Source of the DNA: a candidate division WOR-3 bacterium | GTDB lineage: Bacteria; Hydrothermota; Hydrothermia; LBFQ01; DSFT01 | Assembly (NCBI GenBank): GCA_015494735.1 | Contig: WGAQ01000159.1 | Location: forward strand, 1 to 46,450 | Reading direction: 5' to 3' | Length of the DNA stretch: 46,450 bases | Part shown: piece after piece, positions 1 to 45,508 of the stretch | Layout of the letters: each line of letters opens with the position of its first letter | Numbering within the stretch: the stretch's first letter is position 1 | The notes under the pieces: generated by a model | Told to the model about the DNA's origin: nothing | Databases searched by the model: none | Seen by the model: the letters and a program-made list of their open reading frames with translations, nothing else | Translations under genes and position numbers: made by a program

Positions 1-41
1 GGGCTTTCGCCCCTCCTGCTCTATAAAATTTCTGCCCGAAA

Positions 42-749
42 ATGGAGGCAATTCAGATGGTGTGGTTTATCCTTGCACAGGTGAATCTCATAGGTCAGAA
101 CGATTACCCGGGAGCCACCTGGGTGGGAATAACAGCCGATTTTTCCGGCGATGGGGTGCTGGACGCATACGTATTCTATGGAAACGATTCCGTGGTCATA
201 TACGATGGATTATCCTCCACCCCCATAGGTGGATACAGGGCCCCAGCCGGATACAACATAACGCTCTATAGAATCGGATACCGGACGGTCCTGCTTTACT
301 ACTACAACTACTCCGATGGACAGATGCAATTCCAAATATACGAGGACCTGAACAATCTGGTCTACACATCTGATGTGTTCAACTACAGCAACTACGGTTA
401 CATCTACCCCATCAATTACGATGGAGACCAGTACACGGATATACTGGTCAGGGTGGACAGTGCCCTCTACATATACGAGACCACCTATTCCCTGAATTCG
501 AAGGAAATGAAACCCAGCAATGGAGGCGTTATCGGACGGGTGGATATGGTATCAGGCAACGGGCAGTTGTACATTCCAGTCAGAATCACCGGAGATGCCA
601 CCCTCAGGGTATTCGATTCGAGAGGGAAACTCCTTCTCAGAAGGGAGATTTCCGGCAACCGTGTGGAGATGAACCTCCCGGCAGGGGTCTATACATACGA
701 GATTTCATCTCCAGAAGTCGGCATCTCGGGGAAACTCATCGTAAGGTAG
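42..749 (+). CDS. Secreted repeat protein with T9SS-type C-terminal sorting domain (FG-GAP/VCBS-like DxDGD motifs)
   Basis: Complete ORF, with an in-frame stop at 24-26 upstream. Alternative start ATG 57 is preceded by GGAGG at 45-49. Motifs DFSGDGVLD and NYDGDQYTD. The C-terminus (LRVFDSRGKLL...AGVYTYEI...GKLIVR) resembles a Por/T9SS CTD and matches the tails of the two C25 proteins in this window. Confidence 0.6.
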   Translation: MEAIQMVWFILAQVNLIGQNDYPGATWVGITADFSGDGVLDAYVFYGNDSVVIYDGLSSTPIGGYRAPAGYNITLYRIGYRTVLLYYYNYSDGQMQFQIYEDLNNLVYTSDVFNYSNYGYIYPINYDGDQYTDILVRVDSALYIYETTYSLNSKEMKPSNGGVIGRVDMVSGNGQLYIPVRITGDATLRVFDSRGKLLLRREISGNRVEMNLPAGVYTYEISSPEVGISGKLIVR

Positions 750-775
750 GCGGGGCAATTTCCCGCCTCTATTCT
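749..775 (+). terminator. Putative intrinsic terminator after the first CDS
   Basis: GGCGGG (749-754) pairs with CCCGCC (762-767) around a 7-nt loop, followed by T-rich tctattctat. Confidence 0.45.
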
Positions 776-813
776 ATCGAATTCCACGAATTGGTGGTAG
801 GGCTTCGCCCCTC

Positions 814-824
814 TTTAGACTTTT
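814..824 (+). promoter_or_regulatory. Promoter-like TTTAnAnTTT box, leaderless-type, upstream of the ygjP-like gene
   Basis: cTTTAGACTTTTgcgTTG. The box ends 3 nt before the TTG start at 828 and there is no SD. Confidence 0.4.
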
Positions 825-827
825 GCG

Positions 828-1493
828 TTGCACTTTCCAGCCAGGATTATAAGGAGCGTCAGGCGGACGTATTCCATAGAAATATCGGAGGATGGCATCG
901 TCATAGTCAGGGTGCCCGTGTGGATGAGTCAGGAGGATGTGGAGCGCATAATCCGAAAACACCTGCGATGGATAGAGAGGAAATTAGAAGAATGGAAGTC
1001 CAGAAGACCCATGCAAAAGCGCTTCGTCGAGGGGGAAAAGTTCCTCTATCTGGGGAAGGAGTACCCCCTGAAAATCGCCATCGGGCAGAGAAAGGGCGTT
1101 ATATTCGATGGGAACAGCATAATCGTGAAGCACGGGGATACCGGAAAGATAAGGGAGAGGCTCCTGAACTGGTATAAAGGGCAGGCGAAAACCCTGATTC
1201 CACCCCGCGTTCATCAACTGGCAAATATTCACCGATTCACCCACTCCCGGATACGCATCACCTCCGCCCGGAAGAGATGGGGCTCCTGCTCCCCCGATAA
1301 TGGACTGAACTTCTCCTACCGCCTCATCATGGCACCACCGGATGTGGTGGACTACGTGATAATCCACGAACTGGTACACACGAAGATAAAGAACCATGGC
1401 CCGCAGTTCTATCGCATGCTCCGGTCCATAATGCCCCAATACAGGGAAAAGGAAGAATGGCTCCACCGACACTGGCATCGAACAGTGTGGTAG
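828..1493 (+). CDS. YgjP-like M48/DUF45 family metal-dependent hydrolase
   Basis: 221 aa. HExxH motif in VIIHELVHTKIKNHGPQFY. N-terminal RRTYSIEISEDGIVIVRVP and WIERK pattern are typical of the YgjP/DUF45 family. Confidence 0.85.
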   Translation: MHFPARIIRSVRRTYSIEISEDGIVIVRVPVWMSQEDVERIIRKHLRWIERKLEEWKSRRPMQKRFVEGEKFLYLGKEYPLKIAIGQRKGVIFDGNSIIVKHGDTGKIRERLLNWYKGQAKTLIPPRVHQLANIHRFTHSRIRITSARKRWGSCSPDNGLNFSYRLIMAPPDVVDYVIIHELVHTKIKNHGPQFYRMLRSIMPQYREKEEWLHRHWHRTVW

Positions 1494-1561
1494 AAGATAA
1501 CCATGCAAATGCCAGCGGGAAATCTTCCTCACGGCAATCAGACGAAGGTAAGGAGGTAAAC

Positions 1562-1579
1562 GGGAGGGAGGACCCTCCC
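1562..1579. terminator. Hairpin between convergent genes (possible bidirectional terminator)
   Basis: GGGAGGG (1562-1568), loop agga, CCCTCCC (1573-1579). It lies immediately after the TonB-receptor stop (1581-1583) and 69 nt after the ygjP-like stop. The U-tract is weak. Confidence 0.4.
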
Positions 1580-3683: not shown

Positions 3684-3753
3684 CGTCTTCCTCCTTTTTC
3701 TGCGCCGGGGGAACCAGCGGGTGGAACAGAGAGGGTGAGGAGAGAAGAATCTC

Positions 3754-3856
3754 CCACACCTTCCCTGCGCCGGTATTACCCGGATCAGGTTCGAGGGGTC
3801 TCCCGCGCACTCCAGCGGGACTCTCAGCCGGGTTGCCCCCAGCTCCCCCGGTGTGG
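3754..3856 (-). promoter_or_regulatory. TPP (THI-box) riboswitch aptamer in the leader of the TonB-dependent receptor
   Basis: Minus-strand read: CCACACC-GGGGGAGCUGGGGGCAACCCGG-CUGAGAG-...-GAGACCCCUC-GAACCUGAUCCGGGUAAUACCGGCG-CAGGGAAG-GUGUGG. It contains the conserved CUGAGA, ACCUGAUC..GGUAAUACC..GCG and AGGGAA elements. A perfect 7-bp P1 joins 3850-3856 with 3754-3760. Downstream UCUUCUCUCC could pair with the GGAGGAAGA SD region. Confidence 0.85.
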
Positions 3857-3873
3857 CAATCAAATGCTTTACA

Positions 3874-3903
3874 AGTATAAGGTTAGTGTAAGCCCGATGT
3901 CAA
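3874..3903 (-). promoter_or_regulatory. Promoter for the riboswitch/TonB-receptor transcript
   Basis: Minus strand TTGACA (3903-3898), 18 nt, TATACT(TG) (3879-3874), about 15 nt upstream of the P1 stem. Confidence 0.5.
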
Positions 3904-4301: not shown

Positions 4302-4312
4302 GTTTAAACTTT
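4302..4312 (+). promoter_or_regulatory. Promoter-like box upstream of pstS (leaderless-type)
   Basis: GTTTAAACTTTattATG. The box ends 3 nt before ATG 4316. A second GTTTAAAC palindrome lies at 4283-4290. Confidence 0.45.
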
Positions 4313-4315
4313 ATT

Positions 4316-5329
4316 ATGCCCTGGAAGAGATTATTCCCCCTCGCTCTCGGTATAGCCCTCGCGGGATGCGGGGGTGGGGAGGGACAGAAGATAATAAACG
4401 GTGCCGGCTCTTCGTTCGTATATCCCCTCCTGTCCAAGTGGACGAGTGATTACAGCAAGGCGACGGGAATCCGCATCAACTATCAGTCTATCGGCTCCGG
4501 AGGGGGTATAAGGCAGGTCTCTGCCAGAACCGTGGACTTTGGAGCCAGCGATGCACCCCTCACTCCCCGCGAACTGGACTCCCTGAATTTATACCAGTTC
4601 CCCATAATAGTGGGAGGAGTGGTTCCGGTCCTGAATGTGCCCGGAGTGGAAAAGGGACAGATGAAACTCTCGACCCGCGTGGTATGCGATATTTTCCTGG
4701 GGAAGATTACCAGATGGAATGACCCATCCCTCAAGGAATTGAATCCCGAGCTGAATCTGCCCGATATGGAGATAACCGTGGTCCACAGGTCCGACGGCTC
4801 AGGAACCACCTGGCTCTGGACCAACTACCTGAGCAAGGCCTGTCCCGAATGGAAGGAGAAGGTGGGGTACGGTAAGAGTGTGAAATGGCCCACCGGAATT
4901 GGAGCAAAGGGGAACGAGGGTGTGGCCAATTACGTGAAACAGAATGTGGGCTCCATAGGATACGTGGAATTTGCCTATGCCGTGCAGAGCAATCTCGTAT
5001 ATGCCCTTCTGGAGAACAAGGCGGGCAACTTCGTGGAGCCATCCATTAATTCCTTCAAGGCAGCCACCGCCAACGCCAGCTGGGACCCGGGCACCCACTT
5101 CTATCAGGTTCTGACCTGGCAGGACGGGAAGGATTCGTGGCCCGTGGTGGGAGCGGTCTTCATCCTCCTCCCCCGGGAGAAGAAGGAAGTCAACCGGATG
5201 ATTCTGGACTTCTTCGGATGGGCTTTCGACAACGGAGACGATGCGGCGGTCAGCCTCTACTACGTACCCCTCCCCATGTCCATAAAGGAACTCGTCAGGG
5301 GATACTGGAAGGAAGTGGTTCTCAGATAG
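4316..5329 (+). CDS. pstS: Phosphate ABC transporter substrate-binding lipoprotein PstS
   Basis: Lipobox LALGIALAGCGG. GAGSSFVYPLLSKWTSDYSKATGIRINYQSIGSGGGIRQ is a classic PstS N-terminal signature. No pstCAB follows. Confidence 0.9.
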   Translation: MPWKRLFPLALGIALAGCGGGEGQKIINGAGSSFVYPLLSKWTSDYSKATGIRINYQSIGSGGGIRQVSARTVDFGASDAPLTPRELDSLNLYQFPIIVGGVVPVLNVPGVEKGQMKLSTRVVCDIFLGKITRWNDPSLKELNPELNLPDMEITVVHRSDGSGTTWLWTNYLSKACPEWKEKVGYGKSVKWPTGIGAKGNEGVANYVKQNVGSIGYVEFAYAVQSNLVYALLENKAGNFVEPSINSFKAATANASWDPGTHFYQVLTWQDGKDSWPVVGAVFILLPREKKEVNRMILDFFGWAFDNGDDAAVSLYYVPLPMSIKELVRGYWKEVVLR

Positions 5330-5356: not shown

Positions 5357-6002
5357 AGAAGGTTCCCTCCCCCTCTTTCTTCTTCTCAGCCTTCCTCTTC
5401 AGAATCTTCAGACGGAACTTATCCTCCCTCTCCCTGTCTTCCAGGACCTGACTGATGAATTTCACCTGCTCCTGAAGCTCCGGGATGAGCTTCTGCTCGA
5501 GGGCATTGACCCTCCTGTTGGTCTTGCGTATCTCCTCCCCGAATTTCTTGAGTTTGTATTCCAGAGGAATGACCTTCAGGACCGTGTCTATCGCCCTCTC
5601 GAAGCTGTCGGCCGTAAGGGTTATACGGGATGTAACGGACAGGGGTATGAATCCCTTCTCTGCAAGGCTCCTTATTATGCTACCATACTTGAACTCCGTC
5701 ACCCTCACGCCCCAGGCCCTTCTGGGGATGATTTCGATTTCCAGACGGCGACCAGAACTGAGAGCAGCCGATTCCAGAGCCTCCATGCCATCGATGCCGA
5801 TGGTTATCATGAGGATGTTGACGCTTCTCCTGATTTCCTCCTCCAGCTTCTTCCTCTCCCTTATGACATCTCCCAGGAGTTTCCGGAATTCGTTCATCAA
5901 CGCATCCCGCTTGTTCTTCAGAAGGCTGGCACCCTGAGTGGCCATCTTAATCTGGCGCTTGAGGTTCAGAAGGTTCATCCGGGTGGGGCTTACCTGCTGC
6001 AT
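5355..6002 (-). CDS. atpD: V-type ATP synthase subunit D
   Basis: MQQVSPTRMNLLNLKRQIKMATQGASLLKNKRDALMNEF matches the conserved V/A-ATPase D N-terminus. ATG 6002 is preferred over the TTG at 6011 given in the track. Confidence 0.9.
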   Translation of the reverse strand: MQQVSPTRMNLLNLKRQIKMATQGASLLKNKRDALMNEFRKLLGDVIRERKKLEEEIRRSVNILMITIGIDGMEALESAALSSGRRLEIEIIPRRAWGVRVTEFKYGSIIRSLAEKGFIPLSVTSRITLTADSFERAIDTVLKVIPLEYKLKKFGEEIRKTNRRVNALEQKLIPELQEQVKFISQVLEDREREDKFRLKILKRKAEKKKEGEGTF

Positions 6003-6014
6003 GGTCCTCAAATT

Positions 6015-7577
6015 TTAAAGGGAGCCGGCCACGTACTCCTCGAATGCCCTCACCAGTTCCCCGGCATCCACGCTGGAAATTACGGGCTTTCCGACATCCT
6101 CTATCAGAACCATCCTTATGCTGGACCTGTAGAAACTGTCCAGATATTCTATCTCCTCCCTCAGACGGGCCATGGGCAATTCCTCCAGGGTGGCATCGAT
6201 GGAGTAGAGTCTGTACAGGGCCTCCACCCTCTCCAGTATAGCGGGATTCTTCAATATCCCTTTCCTCCGGCTCATATCGAGGACGATTTTCAATCCTATG
6301 GCAAGGGCCTTCGAGTACGGGACACCGGTCACATCCTGGAGAATCGACGAGACTATCCATCCGAATTTTATGAATCTGCGCTCCCTCCACCCATAGGCAT
6401 CCCTGTGGATGAAGGCCACTTTGGCCAGAGCAGTCGCCCTTATGAGATGCTCGAGGGAGGGGAGGTACATGTCCTTTATGTTCCGGGTATCCTTTTCGAG
6501 AGTATCTATGATTTCGCCATCATGAAGCAGACCGAACTTTATTGCAGTCACCAGCGAGTTATAAAATTCCTGCTCCCTGAGCGAAAGGAGGAACACGGGG
6601 TCCATGAGGATGAATCTGGGATAATAGCTGGTTCCGAGCACATTCTTCATACCGTTGAGATTCAGCATATTGACCCCGCCGACCGCCACCTCAACCTGCG
6701 CTGTAAAGGTGGTGGGGATTAAGACCAGATGCATACCCCCCTGAAATGTGGACGCCGTAAACCCCGTCAGGTCCATGGAGCTCCCTCCTCCCAGCGCCAC
6801 AATGGGGGTGTACTTGGATATGCGCCTCTTTATCAGCTCCTTCCAGATTTCCCGTGCCCTCTCCAGATTCTTGACACTCTGATTGTCCGGAAGGTACAGG
6901 ACATCGTAGGGCATGTTGAAGTTACCCATCACATCCAGGGCCCACTTGAAGTGTATCAGAAAGAGCCGCTTAAACGTGATGAAGAAGGCGTCATCGAATC
7001 CCTCCATGCGCAGAATATCGGAGAACTCCTTGAAGGAGTTGATGCCGAGGTAAATCTTCTCACCGTTGCTGTAAATCAGGGCATAGTCCGAGCGCAGTAT
7101 CCGGGTTATCATGATGGCCACTTCCCTGTCGGTGAAACCCTCTGTGGGCACGTTGTACATATAGGGGAGAAGCTCCTCCACCTCTCTGTTCAGGTCCTGA
7201 AGGCTCTTCAACTTCAGTATGGGATGGGCGACGGGTTCCTCCTGTATGCTCTTCTCCAGAGTCTCTGTAGTGGAACTCAGGTAAACGGGTATTATGCCAT
7301 TCTCCCTGATTATGTGGAGTTCATTGATGGACGGCAGGAGGTCCGAACTGAGGAGTATGACCCCCGCTTCCGGATTCATGACCAGGTCCAGCTCCTGCCT
7401 GCGGAATTCGTCGAGGAGGTTGTTCTCTATAATCTCCAGCATACTCCTGTGCATCCGGGACTCCACTTCCTTCTGGAGGTCCAGAATCTTCCATCCGAGC
7501 CATCTGTTGAGATATTCAGCGATGCGGTACTTGTGGGAGCCCGGAAGTCCGCATATATACACACCCCTTACCTTCAT
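6015..7577 (-). CDS. Shikimate kinase-like / 3-dehydroquinate synthase-like fusion protein, apparently catalytically degenerate
   Basis: The N-terminus aligns by eye to AroK but the Walker A is GLPGSHKY rather than GxxxxGK[ST]. The C-terminal half aligns to AroB: GGGSSMDLTGF...IPTTFTAQVEVAVGGVNMLN...MKNVLGTSYYP. The start ATG overlaps the upstream stop as ATGA. Confidence 0.7.
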   Translation of the reverse strand: MKVRGVYICGLPGSHKYRIAEYLNRWLGWKILDLQKEVESRMHRSMLEIIENNLLDEFRRQELDLVMNPEAGVILLSSDLLPSINELHIIRENGIIPVYLSSTTETLEKSIQEEPVAHPILKLKSLQDLNREVEELLPYMYNVPTEGFTDREVAIMITRILRSDYALIYSNGEKIYLGINSFKEFSDILRMEGFDDAFFITFKRLFLIHFKWALDVMGNFNMPYDVLYLPDNQSVKNLERAREIWKELIKRRISKYTPIVALGGGSSMDLTGFTASTFQGGMHLVLIPTTFTAQVEVAVGGVNMLNLNGMKNVLGTSYYPRFILMDPVFLLSLREQEFYNSLVTAIKFGLLHDGEIIDTLEKDTRNIKDMYLPSLEHLIRATALAKVAFIHRDAYGWRERRFIKFGWIVSSILQDVTGVPYSKALAIGLKIVLDMSRRKGILKNPAILERVEALYRLYSIDATLEELPMARLREEIEYLDSFYRSSIRMVLIEDVGKPVISSVDAGELVRAFEEYVAGSL

Positions 7578-11054: not shown

Positions 11055-11240
11055 TCAGAACTTCTCCGCTTCCTTCTCCAGCATTATGGGGATACCTTCC
11101 CGGACCGGATACTTCAGACGGCATCTGTGGCAGATGAGGACATTCTCTTCCTCCCTGTATTCCAGACGGCCCTTGCACTTGGGACAGACGAGTATTTCGA
11201 GCAGTTCATCGGGAACCCTGTTCTTCGAATCGCTCCGCAT
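11055..11240 (-). CDS. Trm112 family zinc-ribbon protein (UPF0434/YcaR-like)
   Basis: 61 aa. [42 protein letters not shown]. Confidence 0.85.
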
Positions 11241-11244
11241 AGGG

Positions 11245-11254
11245 AAAATTATAG
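11245..11254 (-). promoter_or_regulatory. Promoter-like box upstream of the trm112-like gene (leaderless-type)
   Basis: Minus strand cccTATAATTTTccctATG. It is preceded by the hairpin AGGGCG/CGCCCT (11261-11278), which spans the nuoB stop. Confidence 0.4.
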
Positions 11255-11276
11255 GGGATGAGGGCGAAAAATCGCC

Positions 11277-11843: not shown

Positions 11844-12190
11844 TCCAGACCTCCTTTTCTCCAGATATAGACGTAACCAATCAGGAGAATCAGGATGAAG
11901 ATGAGCATCTCGATGAAGGCGAAGAGTTTGAGGTCCATAACCTTGACGGCCCAGGGGTACATGAAGACCACCTCTATATCGAATATGAGGAAGGCAAGGG
12001 CCGTGAGATAGTACTGGATATTGGCCTTATACTCCCACCTGCCGGGCTTAACTCCGGATTCATACGGATTGAGTTTTTCCCTGTAGGGATTGCGCTTTCC
12101 AAGGAACATGGAGATGGCAAGAACACCGTAGGCTATTATCAGGCCTACGACCGTCATTAAGAGCACCACGAAATATGGATTTATCTTCAT
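11834..12190 (-). CDS. nuoA: NADH-quinone oxidoreductase subunit A
   Basis: NPYESGVKP...[26 protein letters not shown] 12190 is preferred; the track ORF starts at TTG 12202. It overlaps the nuoB start by 10 nt. Confidence 0.9.
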
Positions 12191-12199
12191 GGCTCTAAT

Positions 12200-12211
12200 C
12201 AAAAGGTTAAA
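12200..12211 (-). promoter_or_regulatory. Promoter-like box upstream of nuoA
   Basis: Minus strand gcCTTTAACCTTTTGattagagccATG. Confidence 0.4.
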
Positions 12212-12255
12212 GGCATAAGGGGGTGTAATTCAAAGCCTATCCGTACCATTTTCAT

Positions 12256-12463: not shown

Positions 12464-12475
12464 CTTTATAATTTT
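12464..12475 (+). promoter_or_regulatory. Promoter-like box upstream of nuoH (leaderless-type)
   Basis: CTTTATAATTTTcgaactATG. Confidence 0.45.
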
Positions 12476-12481
12476 CGAACT

Positions 12482-13546
12482 ATGTTGATGATTTTCGTGA
12501 TTCTGCCATTAGTCTCCCTTCTCGTAGCCTTCTTAATAGCCTTCCTCATGGGGTTCCTCTTCGGCACATTTCCCGTCCTGGAGGCGGAGCCCCTGCGCAG
12601 CATCATAGTGGGAGCGGTGGTGGTTACGGCTTCCCTCCTGATATCCGTCCTCATGATATACACCGAGAGGAAGGTGGCCGCCAGACTCCACGGAAGGCTG
12701 GGACCCTATCTGGTTGGAAGACCCCACGGATGGCTCCAGCTCATCGCGGATGCCCTCAAGATGCTCCTGAAGGAGGACATAGTCCCTAAGAAGGCCGACA
12801 GATTCCTGTTCAATCTGGCCCCCATACTCTTCGTATTCTCCGCCATCCTTGCATTCGCCGTCGTTCCTGCCGATAACGGTGCGGTTCTCTTCGATTGGGA
12901 CCTCGGAATCCTCTTCATACTGGCGGTTGCAGGATTCCCCATAATCGGAAACATACTGGCCGGATTCGCCTCCAACTCCAAGTATCCCCTCATATCTGCG
13001 GTGAGGTCCGCGGGAGTCATGCTGGCATACGAGGTTCCCCTGGTCCTCACCATACTGGTTCCCGTGGTTCTGGCCGGGAGCTTCAACCTGACCGATATAG
13101 TGGAGGCGCAGAAGTCCCTGCCCTACATATTCGTTCCCGTCGTGGGGCAGGTGGCTTTCGTCATATTCCTCATCACATCCCTCGCGGAGACCAACAGGGC
13201 TCCATTTGACATAGCAGAGGCAGAGTCGGAACTGGTCTCCGGAGCCAACGTGGAATACTCGGGTATGAAGTTCGGCTTCTTCTATCTGGGTGAGTACATA
13301 TTCCACTTCATCAGCGCCATACTCATCGTCATCTTCTTCCTCGCGGGATGGCACGGACCTCTCCTTCCCGGATGGGCCTGGATGGTGATAAAGGTGTACT
13401 TCGTGTACGTATTCCTCCTCCTCATAAGATGGACCTACACCCGATACAGGCTGGACCAGTTCATAACTCTGGCGTGGAAGTGGCTCATACCCATATCCTT
13501 CGTCAACTTTATACTGGCCGTGCTGGTGAAGTACTACTTCATGTGA
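12482..13546 (+). CDS. nuoH: NADH-quinone oxidoreductase subunit H
   Basis: ERKVAARLHGRLGPYLVGRPHGWLQLIADALKMLLKED and LAETNRAPFDIAEAESELVSG are NuoH/ND1 signatures. Confidence 0.95.
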   Translation: MLMIFVILPLVSLLVAFLIAFLMGFLFGTFPVLEAEPLRSIIVGAVVVTASLLISVLMIYTERKVAARLHGRLGPYLVGRPHGWLQLIADALKMLLKEDIVPKKADRFLFNLAPILFVFSAILAFAVVPADNGAVLFDWDLGILFILAVAGFPIIGNILAGFASNSKYPLISAVRSAGVMLAYEVPLVLTILVPVVLAGSFNLTDIVEAQKSLPYIFVPVVGQVAFVIFLITSLAETNRAPFDIAEAESELVSGANVEYSGMKFGFFYLGEYIFHFISAILIVIFFLAGWHGPLLPGWAWMVIKVYFVYVFLLLIRWTYTRYRLDQFITLAWKWLIPISFVNFILAVLVKYYFM

Positions 13547-14000: not shown

Positions 14001-15076
14001 TTCACCTTCTGTCATCCTACCTGATGGTGGCATCATCCATAAACAAACCCCTGTGGGATTTGCTCCTGGGAAGCGGGCTGGACAGGCCCAGGGCCCACAA
14101 AATCATCTCTGCCCTTGAGGACCATGTGAACTTCCGCCACCTGAGTCCCCGGGATTCTGTTTACATAGAGGTAAAACCTGAGAGCCTGTACATATTTCAC
14201 CTGAAGAAGGGCTACAGGATATACGAGGTGGTCATAGAAGACACTCTCCTGCGCAAATTCGATATAAAGGAGAAATTCCTCTCCAGAAGACTGGAAATGG
14301 TGGAGGGTGTAGTCAGAGACAATCTCTACTGGAGCATGACCTCCATCGGGGAGAGCCCGGAACTGGTGGTAAAGTTCGCCGACATATTCGGATGGGATAT
14401 AGATTTCAGCGTGGAAACGGAAAACGGGGACAGTTTCAGGGTTCTGGTGGAAAAACTCTACAGGGGGGATAAATTTGCAGGATACGGAAGGATATACTAT
14501 GCGGAGTACAGGGGCAGGAGGACCGGGAGCAAGTATGCCGTTTACTGGAAGGGGGCCTACTACGACCTCAACGGCAACTCCCTCCAGAAGATGTTTCTGC
14601 GCTCCCCTCTCAAGGTATATCGAATAACCTCCCGATTCGGCAGGAGATTCCACCCCATCCTGAGGAAGTGGAGAATGCACCACGGCGTGGACTATGCTGC
14701 ACCGGTGGGAACACCGGTCTTTGCAGTGGGAGAGGGGGTGGTCAAATTCGCAGGCTGGAGGGGTGGATACGGGAAACTCATCATCATCAAACATCCCAAG
14801 GGATTCGAAACGAGGTATGGTCACCTGTCCTCCATAGCGGTCAAACCCGGACAGCACGTCAATCAGGGTCAGTTCATAGGCAGGGTGGGCTCCACCGGAT
14901 TATCCACGGGACCCCATCTGCACTTCGAGGTCAGACAGCACGGAAGACTCCTCAATCCCCTCACTCTGAAGCTCCAGCCCAAGGAGCCGGTCCCCGAAGA
15001 GGATATGCCCGAATTCCAGAAGTATGTTGAAAAATTGCGTGATTTTTCCATTAAAATTATAGAAACAAGGAGGTAA
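13997..15076 (+). CDS. M23 family metallopeptidase (LytM/OapA-type)
   Basis: HHGVDYAAPVGTPVFAVGEGVV and STGPHLHFEV motifs. ATGA overlap with cvpA. Confidence 0.9.
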   Translation: MIHLLSSYLMVASSINKPLWDLLLGSGLDRPRAHKIISALEDHVNFRHLSPRDSVYIEVKPESLYIFHLKKGYRIYEVVIEDTLLRKFDIKEKFLSRRLEMVEGVVRDNLYWSMTSIGESPELVVKFADIFGWDIDFSVETENGDSFRVLVEKLYRGDKFAGYGRIYYAEYRGRRTGSKYAVYWKGAYYDLNGNSLQKMFLRSPLKVYRITSRFGRRFHPILRKWRMHHGVDYAAPVGTPVFAVGEGVVKFAGWRGGYGKLIIIKHPKGFETRYGHLSSIAVKPGQHVNQGQFIGRVGSTGLSTGPHLHFEVRQHGRLLNPLTLKLQPKEPVPEEDMPEFQKYVEKLRDFSIKIIETRR

Positions 15077-15079
15077 TCC

Positions 15080-15370
15080 ATGAGACGCGGGGAACTTTCC
15101 CTCGGTATTCTTTTAGGCCTGCTGGTGGGGGCGGTACTCGGCATAATATTCGCTCCCGAATCAGGTGAAGAAACTCGAAAGAAACTCAGGAAAAGGGGCG
15201 AGGATGCGTACGATAAACTCCGCGATGTTCTTGCAGAATACCTGGAAATGGCAGAGGAAAAGGGGCGCGAATACTACGACAAAGCCAGGGATAAGGTGGA
15301 AGATTTGGTGGATGAATTGAAGAGAAAACTGGAAGAGAAGGCAGAAGAATCCATAGACGAGGAGGAATGA
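15080..15370 (+). CDS. YtxH domain-containing protein
   Basis: LGILLGLLVGAVLGIIFAPESGEETRKKLRK followed by a charged coiled-coil tail. AAGGAGGT SD at 15067-15074. Confidence 0.85.
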   Translation: MRRGELSLGILLGLLVGAVLGIIFAPESGEETRKKLRKRGEDAYDKLRDVLAEYLEMAEEKGREYYDKARDKVEDLVDELKRKLEEKAEESIDEEE

Positions 15371-17339: not shown

Positions 17340-17705
17340 TCAGTCAGCAACTGGAATCACAGGCTCCACCCTGGGCAATACCTTCTCCGGTGTCAGCCTG
17401 TGGTCCACCTTCCACAGACCCCTCAGAATCTTGAGAGCATCTGCCCTCGCAACCGTGGCCTTATCCTGGGGCAACTTTGCCAGCTTGGGCTCTATATGCT
17501 CCTTCCAGATTTCCACTCCCCTGCGGTAGCCCCATGCCCTCACGTTGGTGGGGTGCTTCACGAGAAATTCCTGGGCCAGTTCCAGAGCCCTGTCCACCTC
17601 TCCAACGGACAGGAGTTCGGCTATCCTGGCTTCCACCTTGTAGGACTTCTTCTTAAGCTTCCTCTTCTGCTGCTTTCTTATCTGATACTGCTTCCACCTG
17701 CTCAT
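17340..17705 (-). CDS. Hypothetical basic protein
   Basis: Start set at ATG 17705 (MSRWKQYQIRKQQKRKLKKK) with AAGGAGG 5 nt upstream. A promoter-like GTAAAATTTGGGG lies at 17741-17727. No recognisable family. Confidence 0.5.
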   Translation of the reverse strand: MSRWKQYQIRKQQKRKLKKKSYKVEARIAELLSVGEVDRALELAQEFLVKHPTNVRAWGYRRGVEIWKEHIEPKLAKLPQDKATVARADALKILRGLWKVDHRLTPEKVLPRVEPVIPVAD

Positions 17706-27720: not shown

Positions 27721-27725
27721 GTGGC

Positions 27726-32477: not shown

Positions 32478-32490
32478 CTTTAAACTTTTT
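32478..32490 (+). promoter_or_regulatory. Promoter-like box upstream of pckA (leaderless-type)
   Basis: CTTTAAACTTTTTcattATG. Confidence 0.45.
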
Positions 32491-32494
32491 CATT

Positions 32495-34039
32495 ATGGTT
32501 ATCAAGCGCAATCTCCCGGTAGCAGAACTCTATGAACTATCGCTTAAAAATGGATTGGGGGTCCTTGCCGCACAGGGGCAACTGGTGGTGGATACCCGCC
32601 CCTACACGGGCCGCTCCCCAAGGGACAAGTTCGTGGTGAGGGACGAGTTTACGGAGGACAAAATCTGGTGGGGCGATGTGAACCAGCCCTTCGAGAGGGA
32701 AAAATTCGAGCAGATTCTCCGGGAAGTGAAGGAGTATCTCGAAAAGAAGGATGTCGTTTACGTTCAGGACGGCTTTGCGGGAGCAGACCCGAGGCACAGG
32801 ATTGGGGTACGGGTTATGACAGAGAGCCCTTGGCATGCCATATTCGCCTACAACATGTTCATCAGGCCCACGAAGGAGGAACTGGAGAGATTCGAACCCC
32901 ATCTGACCATATACCACGCACCCTCCTTCAAGGCAGTGCCGGAAAAGCACGGAACCAGGAGCGAGGCGTTCATCGGGATGGACCTGAAGAATCGCATAAT
33001 CGTCATCGTGGGGACATCCTACGGTGGAGAGATAAAGAAGTCCGTCTTCTCCTACCTCAACTACTACTATCCATACGAGAAGGGCATCCTGTCCATGCAC
33101 TGCGGTGCCAACATCGGAAAAGCCGGAGACACCGCCCTCTTCTTCGGCCTATCGGGGACGGGAAAGACCTCCCTCTCCACCGATTCCACCAGGCCCCTCA
33201 TCGGGGACGACGAGCACGGGTGGTCGGATGAAGGTATATTCAACTTCGAGGGGGGCTGCTACGCCAAGGTCATAAAGATTTCCAGGGAGAAGGAGCCGGA
33301 GATTTATCGCGCATCCACCAGATTCGGAACCATACTGGAAAACGTGGTTCTGGATGAGAATCGCATGCCCGACTTCGATGATGGTAGCAAGACCGAAAAT
33401 ACGCGTTCCAGCTATCCCATATACTTCCTCGAGAATGTGAAGGAGGACGGGATGGGCGGACACCCCAGGAATATATTCTTCCTCTCCGCAGACGCCTTCG
33501 GAGTCCTGCCTCCCATAGCCAAGCTCACGAGGGAGCAGGCCATGTACTATTTCCTCTCCGGGTACACCGCCAAGGTGGCGGGAACGGAAAGGGGAATAAC
33601 GGAGCCCGTTGCCACCTTCTCCGCATGCTTCGGAGAGCCCTTCCTTCCGCTTCATCCATTCGAATACGCGAAGATGCTGGGCGAAAAGATAGACAGGTAC
33701 AGCCCCAATATATGGCTGGTGAACACGGGATGGACCGGCGGTCCCTACGGTGTGGGGCACAGGATAGACATAAACTACACCCGCCGGATGATAAGGGCTG
33801 CGCTCAACGGGGAATTGGACAACGTGGAGTACTTCACCATGCCCATATTCGAGCTGAGGGTTCCAAAGCACATAAGGGGCATCCCCGACGAGGTGCTCAA
33901 TCCCCGCGAGACATGGGCAGATAAGGAAGCCTACGACGAGCAGGCGAAGAAACTGGCCAGGATGTTCATAGAGAACTTCAGGAAGTACGAGGACAAAGTC
34001 ACGGAAGACGTGAAGAAAGCAGGACCATGGATGGTTTGA
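32495..34039 (+). CDS. pckA: Phosphoenolpyruvate carboxykinase (ATP)
   Basis: [22 protein letters not shown] kinase-1a motif, LIGDDEHGW. Confidence 0.95.
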
Positions 34040-36254: not shown

Positions 36255-36260
36255 AATCAC

Positions 36261-36271
36261 TGTATAATTTG
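36261..36271 (+). promoter_or_regulatory. Promoter-like box upstream of the DUF59 gene (leaderless-type)
   Basis: TGTATAATTTGagcATG. Confidence 0.45.
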
Positions 36272-36274
36272 AGC

Positions 36275-36616
36275 ATGGCAGAGGACAGGAAGGACAACTC
36301 CAGAGTGAAAAGAGAGGACATCATCGAGGTTTTAAAGACCGTTTACGACCCGGAAATACCCCTCAACATTTACGACCTGGGGTTGATATATGGCATAGAG
36401 ATTTCGGATGATGGAAAGGTCCACATACTCATGACCCTCACGGCGCCCGGATGCCCCATAGCCGACAGCCTGATTTACGAAATCAGGGACAAACTCATGC
36501 AACTGGAAGGGGTGAAGAATGTGGATGTGGAACTCACCTTCGACCCCCCATGGTCCCTCGAAAGGATAACGGATGAGGGGAAAGAGATACTCAGAACATT
36601 CGGCTTCAACATCTGA
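36275..36616 (+). CDS. DUF59/MIP18 family Fe-S assembly protein (SufT/PaaD-like)
   Basis: VLKTVYDPEIPLNIYDLGLIYGIE...LTAPGCPIAD. Confidence 0.85.
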   Translation: MAEDRKDNSRVKREDIIEVLKTVYDPEIPLNIYDLGLIYGIEISDDGKVHILMTLTAPGCPIADSLIYEIRDKLMQLEGVKNVDVELTFDPPWSLERITDEGKEILRTFGFNI

Positions 36617-38627: not shown

Positions 38628-39014
38628 TCAGGAAGCGAACCAGCCCTTCATCGCCTCCTCGAAGAGGGATGCATAGCGGGAGAGGATGGCTGTAACTATT
38701 CCGAGAGTGGCTTTCTCTCTGGAAACTATCAGATGCAGGTAGAATTCCCCGTTGCTGACGGGCTTGGTCAGCACTATGTGGTTCTCGCTTATCCCAATGA
38801 GGGTCGAAAGGGATGCAGAGGACAGAGCCTCCAGAGCCCGCATCTGGTACCTGGTGGCCTCCATGCTGTACGCAGCCGAAACCTGCAGGTCTATATCCTC
38901 AGCAGACTTGGTCTCCACTACCGTCAATCCCTCCTTACCCTCCACGATGGCTCCCCCGAGAAATCCGGGCACCTCATCCTTCAGATTTTCCAGGAGTTCC
39001 TTCAGTTTCTCCAT
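38628..39014 (-). CDS. Roadblock/LC7 domain protein (second MglB/MglC-like paralogue)
   Basis: 128 aa. VPGFLGGAIVEGKEGLTVVETKS...HIVLTKPVSNGEFYLHLIVSREKATLGIV follows the Roadblock pattern. Its start overlaps the RR stop (TAATG), with AAGGAGGT SD. Confidence 0.7.
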   Translation of the reverse strand: MEKLKELLENLKDEVPGFLGGAIVEGKEGLTVVETKSAEDIDLQVSAAYSMEATRYQMRALEALSSASLSTLIGISENHIVLTKPVSNGEFYLHLIVSREKATLGIVTAILSRYASLFEEAMKGWFAS

Positions 39015-40153
39015 TATTCCACCTCCTTGGATAGTAATTCAAAGATTCTCTTCAAAACCCTCGAATACTCGACTCGGGCGAGTGAGATAGAAACATTAAC
39101 GAGGGCCATAAGGACAAGGAAACCTCCCTTAAACTCCACGTAAAGCAATCTATTATCCTCCAGTTCTATATATCCAGACACTATCTTCCCCACGGAAAGC
39201 AGCCCGTTGACCAGGGGATAGTAAAGCCCCAGACCATAGAGGAGATTGGCATCTGCATCGTATATCTCCAGAACCTCCATCCTGTCGTCGGAGGCCAGTA
39301 TCTCCCCTATTATGTCCGCTATGGGCTCCGGAAGGGGTTTTACCCGGGGGCCTTCCGCCTTCTCTGCTACGAATTTTCCTATGGATTCCCCCTCCGAATC
39401 GGTTTCCTCCTCTTCCTGAATTATGCCCTCGAATATGGAGCCAGTGAATTCGTACGATTCTTCTCCTCCCCCTTCCATGCTCAAACCGGAGGATTCCTCG
39501 TCTATCTGGGCGAAAATCTCGAGCATCAGATTACTGAAGGGGATATCTATGGTCTTCTTGGGTGGCTTCACCCCCTTTTCCACCGAGAACGTACCTCCCT
39601 CGAGGGAGAATATGACCTTCAGTGCATCGAGCCCCTCTATATCACCGAATCGGGCATGCACTATCTCCCCATCCTGCATGTATATCCTTCCAATTCCGGC
39701 AGCGGAGGAAATGTTTATCACCGCATTGGCCTTTTCCACATTGAGTATGTTCAGCATGTCCGTGATGCTCAGCTCCTTCACCACCCCCCTGAATCCACCC
39801 TTCTCGAGTTTGCGCAGGAGCTGAAGCAGATAATCTATGTCGAAGGGTTTCTCTATGTATTCGACCGCCCCCTTCTCTATGGCGAGCCTCTCCAGTTCAT
39901 CCGAACCCCTGGCGGTCATCACTATGACCCGTATATCCTTATTCCTCTTCTTCGCCTCCTCTATGAGGTCCAGACCCGAAAGCTCGTCCATCTTGATGTC
40001 CGTTATCAATATATCGGCAGGCTCCGTTGAAAGGACTTCTATTGCCCTCCTGGGACTGGTCTCGGTAATCACATCGTAGCCATGTCTCTTGAGGTATCTC
40101 GAAAGCCCCAGGAGGATGTCCTCCTCATCGTCCACTATAAGAACCCTCTTCAT
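39014..40153 (-). CDS. Response regulator: REC + DUF4388/PATAN-like + C-terminal Roadblock-like region
   Basis: REC: VLIVDDEEDI, ILITDIKMDE, VIVMTA, YIEKPF. Middle: FRGVVKELSITDMLNILNVEKANAVINISSAAGIGRIYMQDGEIVHARFGDIEGLDALKVIFSLEGGTFSV, the DUF4388 pattern. C-terminus: MEVLEIYDADANLLYGL...YIELEDNRLLYVEFKGGFLVLMALVNVSISLARV. Confidence 0.85.
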   Translation of the reverse strand: MKRVLIVDDEEDILLGLSRYLKRHGYDVITETSPRRAIEVLSTEPADILITDIKMDELSGLDLIEEAKKRNKDIRVIVMTARGSDELERLAIEKGAVEYIEKPFDIDYLLQLLRKLEKGGFRGVVKELSITDMLNILNVEKANAVINISSAAGIGRIYMQDGEIVHARFGDIEGLDALKVIFSLEGGTFSVEKGVKPPKKTIDIPFSNLMLEIFAQIDEESSGLSMEGGGEESYEFTGSIFEGIIQEEEETDSEGESIGKFVAEKAEGPRVKPLPEPIADIIGEILASDDRMEVLEIYDADANLLYGLGLYYPLVNGLLSVGKIVSGYIELEDNRLLYVEFKGGFLVLMALVNVSISLARVEYSRVLKRIFELLSKEVE

Positions 40154-42555: not shown

Positions 42556-43779
42556 TCAGAAGAATATCCCCGCAATAGAGCCCATGTGGGCGCCGGGATA
42601 GAGATTTTCTGCAATTACCACCTCTTCCACCGTCTCCACCAGGAGATAGGGAGCCTTGAGGTTATCGCCAATCCTCCTCTGCTCCTCCACGTAATCCTCG
42701 AGGGAAAGGACCCTCCTCCTGACGAAACTCTCGAACATGAGGGCCCCGTTTATCTTGTCCAGACGTCCCATGGCTCTGCCCATCATCTTATCCACCGCCT
42801 CGTGCATCTCCTCCGTACTGGATTCCATGAGCCATATGGAGTCCCCCTCGCTCAGGAATGCATTGAGCCTGATTCCCCTCTCCGATATATTCATGGGAAG
42901 GACAGCCCTGAAGATGCCCGGCTTGTTCTTATCTGCCACAGCGAACTGGAACCTGTTCAGTATGCGGCTGGCCTTCACGGGGTCCCTTATATCCTCCTCG
43001 CTGTATCCCTTTCTGGAAAGCACATCGAGCAGGATGTAGAATGCGGGGTCGTCATCCAGGGATATAATCATGTCGCCCCTTATACCCGTAATCTTGAAGG
43101 GTCTAACGGGATGAAATCCGTGGGCCTGGTCCACGTAAAATCTTACATCGGACTCCAGTTTGATGAATATGGCATGGTCCGTATAGGTCTTTCCGTTTAA
43201 CAGGAACGTCTGGTACTCCATCTTCTCAGGGTCCCCCACGATTCCCCCGATTATACCATCGAAACTGTCCGCAAATTCCACCAGGGCATTGTAGGTATTC
43301 TCCCCGGCGAGCGGAATGGAATTGGGGGCGAAGAACACAAGGTAATTATATTCCCTGTTGCTCGAACTTTCAATAAGTTTACCAACTGCTTCATGTATCG
43401 CCCTCTTGGAGCCGAGGGAGAACCCCTTCGCTATCTCCACGCGGGCTCTCACCTTCCTGGAGAATATTCCTACGGCAACCCCGCTCTCGGAGCCAGCCGA
43501 ATGGGCCGCCGCGAAGTTGTTCACGAGGATTGCCACCGGAACATCTCCCACCACGCTCCTTATACCGTCGTACACCTTCCGATAATCGTAGTCGGGGGTA
43601 ACGATTCCTATAGCGAGAGAGTACTCGTTGTCCTGAAGAAGAGAGGCAGCCTCCCTTGCAGCATCGACACCGGCACCGAAATTCTTCTCGGAGTTGGAGA
43701 ATCCGGCTCCGAAATACATGAACGTACCAGCCATCAACTGTTTTTTCGAAAAATCTACCCTGTCCTTAAACTTATCCAT
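42556..43779 (-). CDS. FIST (N+C) domain signal-sensor protein
   Basis: 407 aa. GAGFSNSEKNFGAGVDAAREAA...VPVAILVNNFAAAHS...GFHPVRPFKITGIRGDMIISLDDDPAFYILLDVL...FAVADKNKPGIFRAVLPMNISERGIRLNAFLSEGDSIWLM follows the FIST_N/FIST_C layout. Confidence 0.7.
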   Translation of the reverse strand: MDKFKDRVDFSKKQLMAGTFMYFGAGFSNSEKNFGAGVDAAREAASLLQDNEYSLAIGIVTPDYDYRKVYDGIRSVVGDVPVAILVNNFAAAHSAGSESGVAVGIFSRKVRARVEIAKGFSLGSKRAIHEAVGKLIESSSNREYNYLVFFAPNSIPLAGENTYNALVEFADSFDGIIGGIVGDPEKMEYQTFLLNGKTYTDHAIFIKLESDVRFYVDQAHGFHPVRPFKITGIRGDMIISLDDDPAFYILLDVLSRKGYSEEDIRDPVKASRILNRFQFAVADKNKPGIFRAVLPMNISERGIRLNAFLSEGDSIWLMESSTEEMHEAVDKMMGRAMGRLDKINGALMFESFVRRRVLSLEDYVEEQRRIGDNLKAPYLLVETVEEVVIAENLYPGAHMGSIAGIFF

Positions 43780-43789
43780 AACGGCTTCA

Positions 43790-43800
43790 CAATTATAAAG
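43790..43800 (-). promoter_or_regulatory. Promoter-like box upstream of the FIST-mglBA signalling operon
   Basis: Minus strand CTTTATAATTGtgaagccgttATG, in a 41-nt divergent intergenic region shared with cca. Confidence 0.45.
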
Positions 43801-43820
43801 GATTGAGGAGGGGCAAGGTC

Positions 43821-44822
43821 TTGAAAGACATCTACTACGTGGGAGGTGTTGTAAGGGACAGGCTGTTAGGTGTTCCCACGGAAGATGTGGACATGGTCTT
43901 CGTGCCCGATGAGGACGTGGAGAAGAGCATAAGGGAAGTCATCGCATTCATGGAATCCCGGGGCTTCACCCTCAGGATGCGCACTCCCTTCAACACGCTC
44001 AAGTTCGAGAAGGGGGAGAAGGTGGTGGATGTGGCGATGGCGAGGAGGGAAAAGTATCCCCGTCCCGCGTCTCTCCCGAAAGTGGAGCCCGTATTCGACA
44101 TAGTGGAGGACCTGGCCCGGAGGGACTTCACCATAAATGCCATGGCGATGGATATGCATGGGAGGATAATCGACCCCTTCGGAGGAAGGGAGCACCTGAG
44201 GAAGAAAATCCTGATTCCCATATCCAGTTTCATCGACGACCCCACCAGAATCTTCAGGGGAATCCGATATGCGAGGAGGCTCGATCTCAGGTACTCCAGA
44301 AACTTCATGCGGCAGACCGCCAGGGGAAAGCGATACATTCCTGTGCTGTCCTTCGCCCGCATAAAGAACGAACTGGAGCGCATAAGCGTGGAGAGGAAGA
44401 GGTTGCACATGTGGGAGGATATAGTCCACTGGAGGCTTCTGGGAGAGGGCATGATTCCTTCCCTTCTTTCCGAGGTGGAACCGCATATCCCCCACGAGAA
44501 GGGCATGTGGATATTCTTCTTCACCTCCATGGGACTGACCTTCCACAAACTGGAGCACATTACACGGAGGGAGAGGCAATACCTCGAATCCCTTCCGCTG
44601 GCCGGTGAGGATGACCCCATGCGGATTCACAAACTCCTGTATAACCGGGACAGGTACATCGCCCTCATGCTCTACGTGAGAACCGGACGGGATTTCTTCC
44701 TCAGATACTTCGAAAGGAGGGACTCATGCAGGAAGAGGATAAAGGGACTGAAAGGGGAGAAATTCCACAGGGCGTGGCTGGAATGTATATATGGAAGATG
44801 GGATGATTCGGGAAACGGTTAA
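43821..44822 (+). CDS. cca: tRNA nucleotidyltransferase (CCA-adding enzyme/poly(A) polymerase family, short form)
   Basis: IYYVGGVVRDRLLGVPTEDVDMVF, RRDFTINAMAMD, DDPTRIFRGIRYARRL. TTG 43821 with GGAGG at 43807-43811 is preferred over the track's TTG at 43803. Confidence 0.8.
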   Translation: MKDIYYVGGVVRDRLLGVPTEDVDMVFVPDEDVEKSIREVIAFMESRGFTLRMRTPFNTLKFEKGEKVVDVAMARREKYPRPASLPKVEPVFDIVEDLARRDFTINAMAMDMHGRIIDPFGGREHLRKKILIPISSFIDDPTRIFRGIRYARRLDLRYSRNFMRQTARGKRYIPVLSFARIKNELERISVERKRLHMWEDIVHWRLLGEGMIPSLLSEVEPHIPHEKGMWIFFFTSMGLTFHKLEHITRRERQYLESLPLAGEDDPMRIHKLLYNRDRYIALMLYVRTGRDFFLRYFERRDSCRKRIKGLKGEKFHRAWLECIYGRWDDSGNG

Positions 44823-44828
44823 TCCTTC

Positions 44829-44840
44829 TGTAAATTTTTG
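44829..44840 (+). promoter_or_regulatory. Promoter-like box upstream of the SDR gene (leaderless-type)
   Basis: TGTAAATTTTTGaaaccATG. Confidence 0.45.
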
Positions 44841-44845
44841 AAACC

Positions 44846-45508
44846 ATGAAAACAGCAGTCATAAGCGGAGTGAGTTCGGGAATCGGTCTGGAAGTTGCAA
44901 GGAGACTTCTGGCCGAAAAGTACATGGTTATAGGATGCTCCCGCAACAGGCCCCCTATAGATGACATCGTATTCTTCAAATGCGACATACGGAACACGGA
45001 TGAGGTGGAATCTTTCGCCCGATTCGTGAAGGAGAAGGTCAGCCACATAGACGTCCTGCTCAACAACGCGGGGATGACCTACGTGAAGAAGTTCGAGGAC
45101 TTCATACCGGAAGAGATCGACGAAATCATTGAGACCAATACCATCGGCATCATGAAGAAGACCCTCCTGCTCCTTCCCCTTCTGAAAGAGGGCTCCATAA
45201 TAATCAACCTGGGCTCGGTGGCCGCCGTCATGCACTTCCCCGAGTGGTCCGTGTATAATGCCAGCAAATTCGCCCTCAGGGGGTGGAGCAAGGCCCTCAG
45301 GAAGGAGCTGTCGGAGAGGGGAATAAGGGTCACCCTGATAAATCCGGGAGCGGTCTGGACCCCCTTCTGGGAGAAGATAGGCTTCGAGAGGGCGTACAAT
45401 ATGCTGAGTGCAGAGGATGTGGCCCAGGTGATTATGGATGTGATACACCTTCCGCCCCACGTGGATGTGGAGGAACTGCTCATAACCCATGTCAGGAGAG
45501 CCCATTGA
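44846..45508 (+). CDS. Short-chain dehydrogenase/reductase (SDR) family oxidoreductase
   Basis: AVISGVSSGIGLEVA (TGxxxGxG-like), NNAG, YNASKFAL (YxxxK). Confidence 0.9.
   Translation: MKTAVISGVSSGIGLEVARRLLAEKYMVIGCSRNRPPIDDIVFFKCDIRNTDEVESFARFVKEKVSHIDVLLNNAGMTYVKKFEDFIPEEIDEIIETNTIGIMKKTLLLLPLLKEGSIIINLGSVAAVMHFPEWSVYNASKFALRGWSKALRKELSERGIRVTLINPGAVWTPFWEKIGFERAYNMLSAEDVAQVIMDVIHLPPHVDVEELLITHVRRAH

Follow-up and report, generated by a model that had tools for sequence, protein, structure and literature searches.

A promoter −10 element abutting the start codons of first genes, and probable leaderless mRNAs, in a WOR-3 bacterium

The stretch of DNA analyzed here (46,450 nucleotides [nt], contig WGAQ01000159.1, hereafter the window) comes from a candidate division WOR-3 bacterium, and within it a short A/T-rich box recurs almost against the start codons of first genes. 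This box is the −10 element of promoters read by the RpoD-type housekeeping RNA polymerase and is not a translation signal. About a third of the genes of this uncultured bacterium from hot environments have such a box 6–10 nt before the start codon, and their mRNAs are probably leaderless. The reading favored for the whole, which is very probably correct, is that an RpoD −10 box abuts the starts of leaderless first cistrons and that downstream cistrons rely on Shine–Dalgarno (SD) sequences or on overlap with the preceding gene.

The window is one contig of an assembly of 1.76 Mb in 182 contigs (52–53% guanine plus cytosine [GC]; ~95% complete), and the statistics below refer to this whole genome. 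The nearest relatives of its V/A-ATPase A subunit are found in metagenome-assembled genomes labelled Candidatus Hydrothermia, candidate division WOR-3 or Hydrothermales. The WOR-3 phylum currently bears the NCBI name Caldifarciminota.

The box motif and its distance from the start codon

The original prediction, made by reading the window alone, quoted 14 strings in which an A/T box precedes the first gene of a transcription unit. All 14 are present where they were reported, each directly abutting the start codon assigned to it, and the observation is confirmed as real and genome-wide. The unbiased motif discovery that the prediction had proposed as a check recovers the same box. Expectation maximization (EM) from random seeds, given 170 nt of sequence spanning the 5′ end of each of 569 operon-first open reading frames (ORFs) and no start-codon information, finds cCTTTAAA(A/C)TTT in 482 of the 569 regions (85%). 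The hexamer columns have frequencies of T.98, A.99, A.81, A.93, A/C.72/.26 and T.99; C (.69), T and T flank the hexamer on the 5′ side and T (.97) and T (.65) on the 3′ side, giving a long motif of ~11 informative positions. The G that had been proposed to follow the T-run is not part of it: the next column holds A.20, C.28, G.19 and T.34, with no enrichment of G.

An in-frame start codon lies 6–12 nt past the TAAAMT hexamer in 310 of the 482 EM sites (~64%). At spacings of 6, 7, 8, 9, 10, 11 and 12 nt, the sites number 100, 63, 40, 52, 27, 13 and 15, and frames +1 and +2 hold just 0–3 sites per distance at 6–9 nt. The predicted closeness of box and start is therefore upheld, but the distance is better measured from the hexamer, with a mode of 6–7 nt. 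A start-agnostic count, which needs no gene or start calls, takes every genomic TA.A.T and counts downstream ATGs opening an ORF of at least 100 amino acids (aa) at each distance. It rises from 21 at spacing 5 to 204, 142, 83, 115 and 86 at spacings 6–10, over a background of ~38. The patterns TA.A.T and TAWAHT replaced the generic TA...T in these searches because codon periodicity makes the latter too noisy.

Intergenic DNA is richer in A/T than coding DNA, and the box could in principle be a product of chance or composition. The tests refute this explanation and leave it a negligible probability. Against other A/T-rich intergenic sequence, the comparison on which the prediction had staked itself, the top over-represented intergenic 8-mers (TTAAACTT, TAAACTTT and TTAAAATT) reach 15–21 times the expectation of a second-order Markov model built on intergenic DNA itself. 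About 80% of their genomic copies fall within non-coding DNA, which makes up ~14% of the genome. The nearly tenfold step between spacings 5 and 6 and the dependence on reading frame likewise speak against composition, and only 0.05% of interior ATGs, taken as controls, have a box at a start-like distance.

The box as a −10 element recognized by RpoD

The identity of the box is given by genes that encode stable RNAs. Among 45 tRNA and tmRNA genes, 37 carry the box within 60 nt, its hexamer ending most often 11–12 nt from the mature 5′ end; those lacking it mostly lie close behind another tRNA gene. Upstream of the 16S rRNA gene are three tandem units, two of the form TTGACA-N17-TAAACTTT and one TTGAAA-N17-TAAACTTT. 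In the window, the promoter of a thiamine pyrophosphate (TPP) riboswitch reads TTGACA-N18-TATACT and ends 14 nt before the aptamer. Its presence ahead of genes for tRNAs, rRNA and a riboswitch identifies the box as a promoter element and not as a signal in mRNA.

A −35-like hexamer (at least 4 of 6 positions) accompanies 40% of tRNA promoters vs. 12% at random. At promoters of the leaderless class, such a match is not above random (18% vs. 12–15%). The consensus is c-C-T-T-[T-A-A-A-A/C-T]-T-T, a TATAAT-type hexamer with a conserved C-T-T upstream and T-T downstream. Protein-gene promoters next to starts appear to be “−10-only,” with no −35 seen, and promoters of stable RNAs, along with some leadered ones, would add TTGACA at 17–18 nt.

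It is quite improbable that the box acts in the 5′ untranslated region of the mRNA, as a non-SD enhancer that binds the ribosome or S1 in the manner of the Bacteroidota “group B” motif. The box does lie roughly where a ribosome-binding site (RBS) would, A/U-rich enhancers are known, and about 90% of the sampled FCB-group bacteria have non-SD motifs at such a distance in the GeneMarkS-2 survey (PMC6028130). However, the same box stands at promoter distance before tRNA, tmRNA, rRNA and riboswitch genes, and it is strictly of the TAnAnT type, with TTGACA at 17–18 nt at stable-RNA genes. It is also nearly absent before overlapping internal genes (2.5%), which need translation signals as well, whereas group B motifs precede first and internal genes alike (PMC6028130). 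A site for a global transcription factor or nucleoid protein, in place of a −10 recognized by a sigma factor, is less probable still. The length of the motif and its uniformity, unusual for a −10, would suit such a site. Yet the box occurs at ~85% of transcription units, rRNA and tRNA genes included; EM found no other −10-like motif; the box is spaced from TTGACA and from start codons as a −10 hexamer would be; and the genome encodes only three sigma-70-family proteins.

These three proteins are a 549-aa RpoD, a 277-aa group-2/3-like protein and a 154-aa ECF-like protein (C167, C107 and C66). RpoD is full length, with Pfam regions 1.2, 2, 3 and 4 all present, and its regions 2.3/2.4, 3.0 and 4.2, including TRERVRQIEAKA, match those of E. 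coli sigma-70 almost residue for residue. This conservation fits a specificity of the TTGACA/TATAAT type. The rpoD gene itself is SD-led, with AAGGAGGAAGAAGTA ahead of its ATG.

The prediction had likened the box to the −7 element of Bacteroidetes. Promoters of the primary sigma factor in Bacteroidota consist of a −33 TTTG and a −7 TAnnTTTG (partly in PMC12641261). Both elements are A/T-rich, open with T-A and have a T-run toward their 3′ side. The resemblance nevertheless fails on several counts. The register is TA-nn-TTTG there and TA-AAM-TTT here, where the G is also missing; the −33 TTTG contrasts with TTGACA or TTGAAA at 17–18 nt wherever an upstream element exists here; and SD sequences are weak or absent there but common here, alongside a canonical anti-SD. 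The comparison of sigma domains that had been suggested points the same way, as the DNA-reading regions of this full-length RpoD are nearly those of E. coli sigma-70. Extended −10 (TGn) promoters of E. coli and Gram-positive bacteria also have conserved bases 5′ of the hexamer and a weak or absent −35, but these bases are T-G-n there and C-T-T, with C at −15, here. An archaeal TATA box (TTTAWA ~26 nt before the transcription start site [TSS]) was rejected as an identity for the element: the genome has a bacterial 16S rRNA and sigma-70-family proteins, and the box lies 6–10 nt from starts.

Probable leaderless initiation at first genes

The ORF scorer used here returns 1648 genes, 1511 of them with a complete 5′ end. 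Between 416 and 622 of these (28–41%) have a box of at least 8 bits 5–12 nt before an in-frame start, and 471 (31%) satisfy strict criteria (at least 10 bits, 6–10 nt and ATG). RNA polymerase usually initiates 6–9 nt beyond the −10 hexamer, and 6 nt is the canonical gap to +1. At most protein-coding transcription units, the hexamer ends 6–10 nt before the start codon, so that transcription would begin at the A of ATG or 1–4 nt before it. The mRNAs would then be leaderless or nearly so, and ribosomes would have to initiate on them without SD contact. The exact transcription start and leaderless translation are both inferred from this geometry and from the features of the start codon described below.

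The spacing distribution has an abrupt onset at 6 nt and is specific for the reading frame. At spacings of 6–7 nt, the base at −1 is C in 65% of box genes vs. 26% of SD genes; the resulting C-A-T conforms to the Y-R-Y “start element” that TSS maps of 49 bacteria have defined (PMC12641261). The start codon is ATG in 90% of cases after boxes vs. 75% in SD genes, and genome-wide GTG is weakly enriched after boxes and TTG is not. A preference for ATG is as expected of SD-independent initiation on a 5′-terminal AUG.

In many genes, the reading frame itself forces the box-adjacent start. Of 622 box genes, 445 have no start codon in the ORF ahead of the box-adjacent one, and in 293 of those 445 an in-frame stop lies no more than 18 nt upstream, which means that the ORF cannot start any earlier. 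The proposed starts place the onset of the Pfam domain at residues 2–4 in PEPCK, NDK, FKBP, the ATPase A subunit and the short-chain dehydrogenase/reductase (SDR). The claim that the box helps to correct over-extended starts is borne out as well: of the 622 box genes, 177 have a longest ORF that is too long (median excess, 9 codons).

Alternatively, the box could be a promoter in genes that are expressed mainly as leadered mRNAs from other promoters upstream, its nearness to starts reflecting a compact genome. Some boxes do lie inside the 3′ end of a same-strand gene (V-ATPase D at 6020-6010, ytxH at 15049 and ndk at 26437), and 65 box genes genome-wide follow a gap of 0–25 nt, where read-through is possible. 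This alternative is nonetheless unlikely. Among divergent genes, 69% have an abutting box and no second motif upstream; EM gives one site per region in 85% of regions; the similarity to a close relative stops ~35 nt upstream of ATG (see below); and neither the sharp onset at 6 nt nor the frame specificity is expected from compaction alone.

Several points weigh against the favored reading. Spacings of 8–12 nt (~40% of sites) may mean leaders of 1–6 nt rather than strictly leaderless mRNAs, and the spacing distribution has a second peak, at 9 nt. In 204 box genes, an SD-like match of 5 nt or more also stands ahead of a different candidate start; GGAGG-rich coding sequence often yields such matches by chance, yet they hold the number of box genes between 416 and 622. 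Finally, the gene calls come from a home-made ORF scorer and not from a validated gene finder.

Division between first and internal genes

The box and the SD divide according to position in the operon. A box abuts the start of 69% of divergently oriented genes and of only 2.5% of genes that overlap an upstream same-strand neighbor, which have SD matches (in most cases) or nothing in its place. SD-class genes (n = 596) are concentrated at close or overlapping same-strand junctions, and a peak of GGAGG stands 6–7 nt before the ATGs of long ORFs. The 16S rRNA, which the prediction had named for comparison, has a canonical anti-SD: the gene ends CCTCCTTT, and the 3′ end reads GGATCACCTCCTTT. Downstream cistrons, together with a minority of first genes that have leaders of 20–50 nt, would use a canonical SD or a start/stop overlap. 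Leaderless first cistrons combined with SD-led or overlapping internal cistrons, as originally proposed, agree with every sequence-level test run and are supported as far as sequence alone goes.

The examples first given for the internal mode hold in part. The Roadblock-type gene is an internal cistron with no box and with AAGGAGGT 6 nt before its ATG at 39014 (minus strand; 39012..39035), and it exemplifies the SD-led mode. The other two, ytxH (ATG 15080) and the gene starting at 17705, each show a box ahead of the SD and may be promoter-proximal genes with a leader; the SD of the latter also reads AAGGAGGG and not AAGGAGGT. First genes in the window that bear an SD-containing leader are the 17705 gene, the 43821 gene and probably ytxH.

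Conservation and extent among relatives

A genome of the same genus (G088; ~85% identity in coding DNA) keeps both the box and the spacer length at eight orthologous sites: pckA, ndk, khtT, slyD, atpA, C25, DUF59 and FIST. At C25 and DUF59, the letters of the spacer have changed and its length has not. Where the upstream flank can be aligned, similarity gives out ~35 nt ahead of the ATG and no conserved block lies beyond it, which is the footprint expected for a promoter starting transcription at the ATG.

The exact motif followed by ATG is strongly enriched in two genomes of the genus and more weakly in a sister genus. Such exact-motif ratios overstate enrichment, as the reversed-pattern control gave 34 in the own genome vs. 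a true baseline of ~70. Because this control underestimates the baseline, spacing profiles of long-ORF ATGs were used for the relatives, with roughly 30–200 kb from each of seven genomes and the excess of box–ATG pairs per Mb as the measure. The own genome (53% GC) has an excess of 271, G116 of the same family (28% GC) 189 and G078 of the same order (57% GC) 395. Three genomes from other families of the class (G032, G058 and G006; 39–61% GC) have 69–108, and G007 of the same phylum (31% GC) has 36, which is not clearly above noise. The 28 kb sampled from G088 does not suffice for a rate (nominally 124 per Mb). The layout is thus strong across the sampled order (three genomes from two families) and weaker in the rest of the class that was sampled.

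The flanks of the hexamer vary among lineages. The box of G116 retains CTT-TAAAAT-TTT, and that of G078, which most often stands 8 nt from the start, is C-n-n-C-n-n-TA(G/A)AAT; a C at the third position before the hexamer (−15) is common to the own genome, G116 and G078. Apart from this C, the flanks are lineage-specific, with CTT...TT in the own family and C-n-n-C-n-n before TAGAAT in the sister family. A tentative and rather doubtful extension is that leaderless initiation from “−10-only” promoters is the default across the order and that, in the own family, the invariant T at −6 and the frequent T at −5 are perhaps read by the diverged region 1.2 of an RpoD that is canonical in other respects. 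Its basis at the level of the order is the excess of 190–395 box–ATG pairs per Mb in three genomes spanning 28–57% GC. If true, it would define a distinct mode of extended −10/discriminator recognition, possibly tied to promoter melting at high temperature.

Further observations concern individual relatives. Genera of one family (G000/G088 vs. G112/G116) differ in GC content (52% vs. 28%) and have the same CTTTAAAATTT box. In G116, many box promoters have an extra conserved 8-mer, ACACAGCA or ACAAGGCA, that begins exactly 30 nt upstream of the hexamer (a gap of 22 nt) and could be an unusual upstream promoter element or the site of a regulator; the own genome has no such conserved position upstream of the hexamer. 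In the sampled DNA of G078, no GGAGG peak is visible before long-ORF ATGs, and SD use there may be low or based on a different core. In 200 kb of G032, ~260 copies of TA...T have an ATG at spacing 0 and ~260 have one at spacing 4, which indicates a high-copy short repeat.

Comparison with known systems and implications

The closest parallel is the “−10-motif adjacent to ORFs” of Deinococcus-Thermus, which is experimentally validated and concerns ~30% of ORFs (PMC12340547). As in the present genome, a TANNNT-type −10 lies 6–7 bp before the ORF in ~30% of genes (de Groot et al., 2014; Zhong et al., 2025, PMC12340547), the remaining genes use a GGAG RBS, a −10 without a clear −35 suffices, and the motif corrects annotated starts (PMC12340547). 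The consensus is TACACT there, whereas the box here is TAAA(A/C)T with CTT...TT flanks, belongs to the WOR-3/Caldifarciminota lineage and is described from sequence.

In the classification of GeneMarkS-2, this architecture appears to be of the group C type, a layout already known, here in WOR-3/Hydrothermia. Group C has a Pribnow box 6–8 nt from the starts of first genes together with an SD model for internal and leadered genes; 25–50% of operons are predicted to be leaderless, and the group is concentrated in Actinobacteria and Deinococcus-Thermus (PMC6028130). Its example Mycobacterium tuberculosis follows a dual model as here (PMC6028130; TSS map in PMC3898074). Here, ~64% of operon-first sites have a start at 6–12 nt, which is more than the share reported for group C. 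No WOR-3 genome is named in the passages of the survey that were consulted (PMC6028130), and a literature search found no report joining leaderless expression with WOR-3.

Bacteria that pair mainly leaderless first cistrons with a fully canonical SD/anti-SD system are known chiefly among Actinobacteria and Deinococcus-Thermus, and the present case extends this group to WOR-3/Hydrothermia. No new mechanism is revealed, and the main uses lie in the annotation of start codons and the definition of promoters in this group. Gene callers tuned to the SD likely misplace starts in WOR-3/Hydrothermia, where the box offers a simple rule of correction. It also provides a compact, well-defined promoter of ~11 nt that needs no −35 and could serve genetic work in recently cultured WOR-3 isolates.

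Sites in the window

The genome-trained motif model scores 27 sites in the window at 9 bits or more. Of these, 15 have a gene start 5–13 nt downstream, and another four are promoters with a leader behind them (riboswitch or SD). About seven are intragenic or without assignment, and ~6 are expected by chance when the control rate is extrapolated.

The eight sites kept in G088 lie on both strands. On the minus strand, CTTTAAAATTA (22411..22428) ends 6 nt before ATG 22413 of the V/A-ATPase subunit A gene and CTGTAAACTTT (24027..24044) 6 nt before ATG 24029 of an FKBP/SlyD-like gene, and CTTTATAATTG (43777..43800) is 12 nt from ATG 43779 of the first gene of the FIST operon. On the plus strand, GGTTAAACTTT (24787..24807) stands 9 nt before ATG 24805 of a gene for a TrkA_C protein (khtT-like), and ATTTAAACTTT (26437..26455) stands 7 nt before ATG 26453 of ndk, whose product matches Pfam NDK over residues 2–132 and whose longest ORF (GTG 26411) over-extends by 14 codons. 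The spacing is likewise 7 nt for GTTTAAAATTA (27710..27728) at ATG 27726 of the C25/FG-GAP protein gene, and it is 8 nt for CTTTAAACTTT (32478..32497) at ATG 32495 of pckA, encoding an ATP-dependent phosphoenolpyruvate carboxykinase (Pfam residues 3–466). At CTGTATAATTT (36260..36277), 6 nt before ATG 36275 of the DUF59/FeS_assembly_P gene, the longest ORF (GTG 36068) over-extends by 69 codons.

Most of the remaining sites also abut a start. On the plus strand, CTATAAAATTT (21-31; feature 21..44; 15.4 bits by position weight matrix [PWM]) lies 12 nt from ATG 42 of a hypothetical 235-aa gene, and GTTTAAACTTT (4302..4318) lies 5 nt from ATG 4316 of a PstS-like gene (PBP_like_2). CTTTATAATTT (12464..12484) precedes ATG 12482 of nuoH by 9 nt, as does CTGTAAATTTT (44828..44848) ATG 44846 of a short-chain dehydrogenase gene, in which Pfam adh_short begins at residue 2. 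The weakest case is CTTTAGACTTT (813..830), 6 nt from TTG 828 of a YgjP-like gene, because TTG starts are not enriched after boxes genome-wide. On the minus strand, CCTATAATTTT (11238..11256; 8.3 bits) is 7 nt from ATG 11240 of a Trm112-like gene, and CTTTAACCTTT (12188..12212) is 13 nt from ATG 12190 of nuoA, with TTGAAT 18 nt upstream of the hexamer.

Two sites were absent from the original prediction. On the minus strand, CTTTAAAATTT (6020-6010; feature 6000..6020; PWM 18.0 bits) lies 9 nt from ATG 6002 of the gene for V-ATPase subunit D (Pfam ATP-synt_D). This box overlaps the stop codon of an upstream AroK-AroB-like gene, and the V-ATPase D gene may be transcribed separately from it. The other is GTGTAAAATTA (17753..17771, plus strand), 7 nt from the in-frame GTG 17769 of a gene encoding a TPR protein.

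Leadered promoters in the window include three with an SD. At ytxH, CATTAAAATTA followed by AAGGAGGT (15049..15082, plus strand; ATG 15080) is a candidate for an internal promoter whose short leader contains an SD. At the 17705 gene, CTGTAAAATTT (17741-17731; feature 17703..17741, minus strand) lies 27 nt from the ATG, with AAGGAGGG 5 nt before it, so that this is a leadered, SD-led first gene. The third is CCTTAAACTTA (43764-43774; feature 43764..43823, plus strand), divergent from the FIST operon, which is followed by a ~40-nt leader with AGGAGGGG and by TTG 43821 of a leadered, SD-led gene for a PolyA_pol-head/CCA-adding-type enzyme. Two of these promoters are placed back to back with a divergent box: those of the 17705 and TPR genes (17731-17763) are 11 nt apart, and those of the FIST operon and the CCA-adding-type enzyme (43764-43800) overlap.

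The riboswitch promoter (feature 3744..3903, minus strand) has TTGACA at 3903-3898, an 18-nt spacer and TATACT at 3879-3874. The TPP aptamer (3859-3744, minus strand; Rfam RF00059, 75.5 bits) stands upstream of a TonB-dependent receptor gene (~1581-3740; Pfam Plug and beta-barrel), and this pairing suggests thiamine-regulated uptake at the outer membrane.

A second set of over-represented intergenic words occurs in the genome in ~60–85 copies, some like GTTCACACTCCACT and others like GGTCAGAT or CTGACCTGAGT. It points to one or more repeat families elsewhere in the genome, perhaps clustered regularly interspaced short palindromic repeats (CRISPR) or miniature inverted-repeat transposable elements (MITEs).

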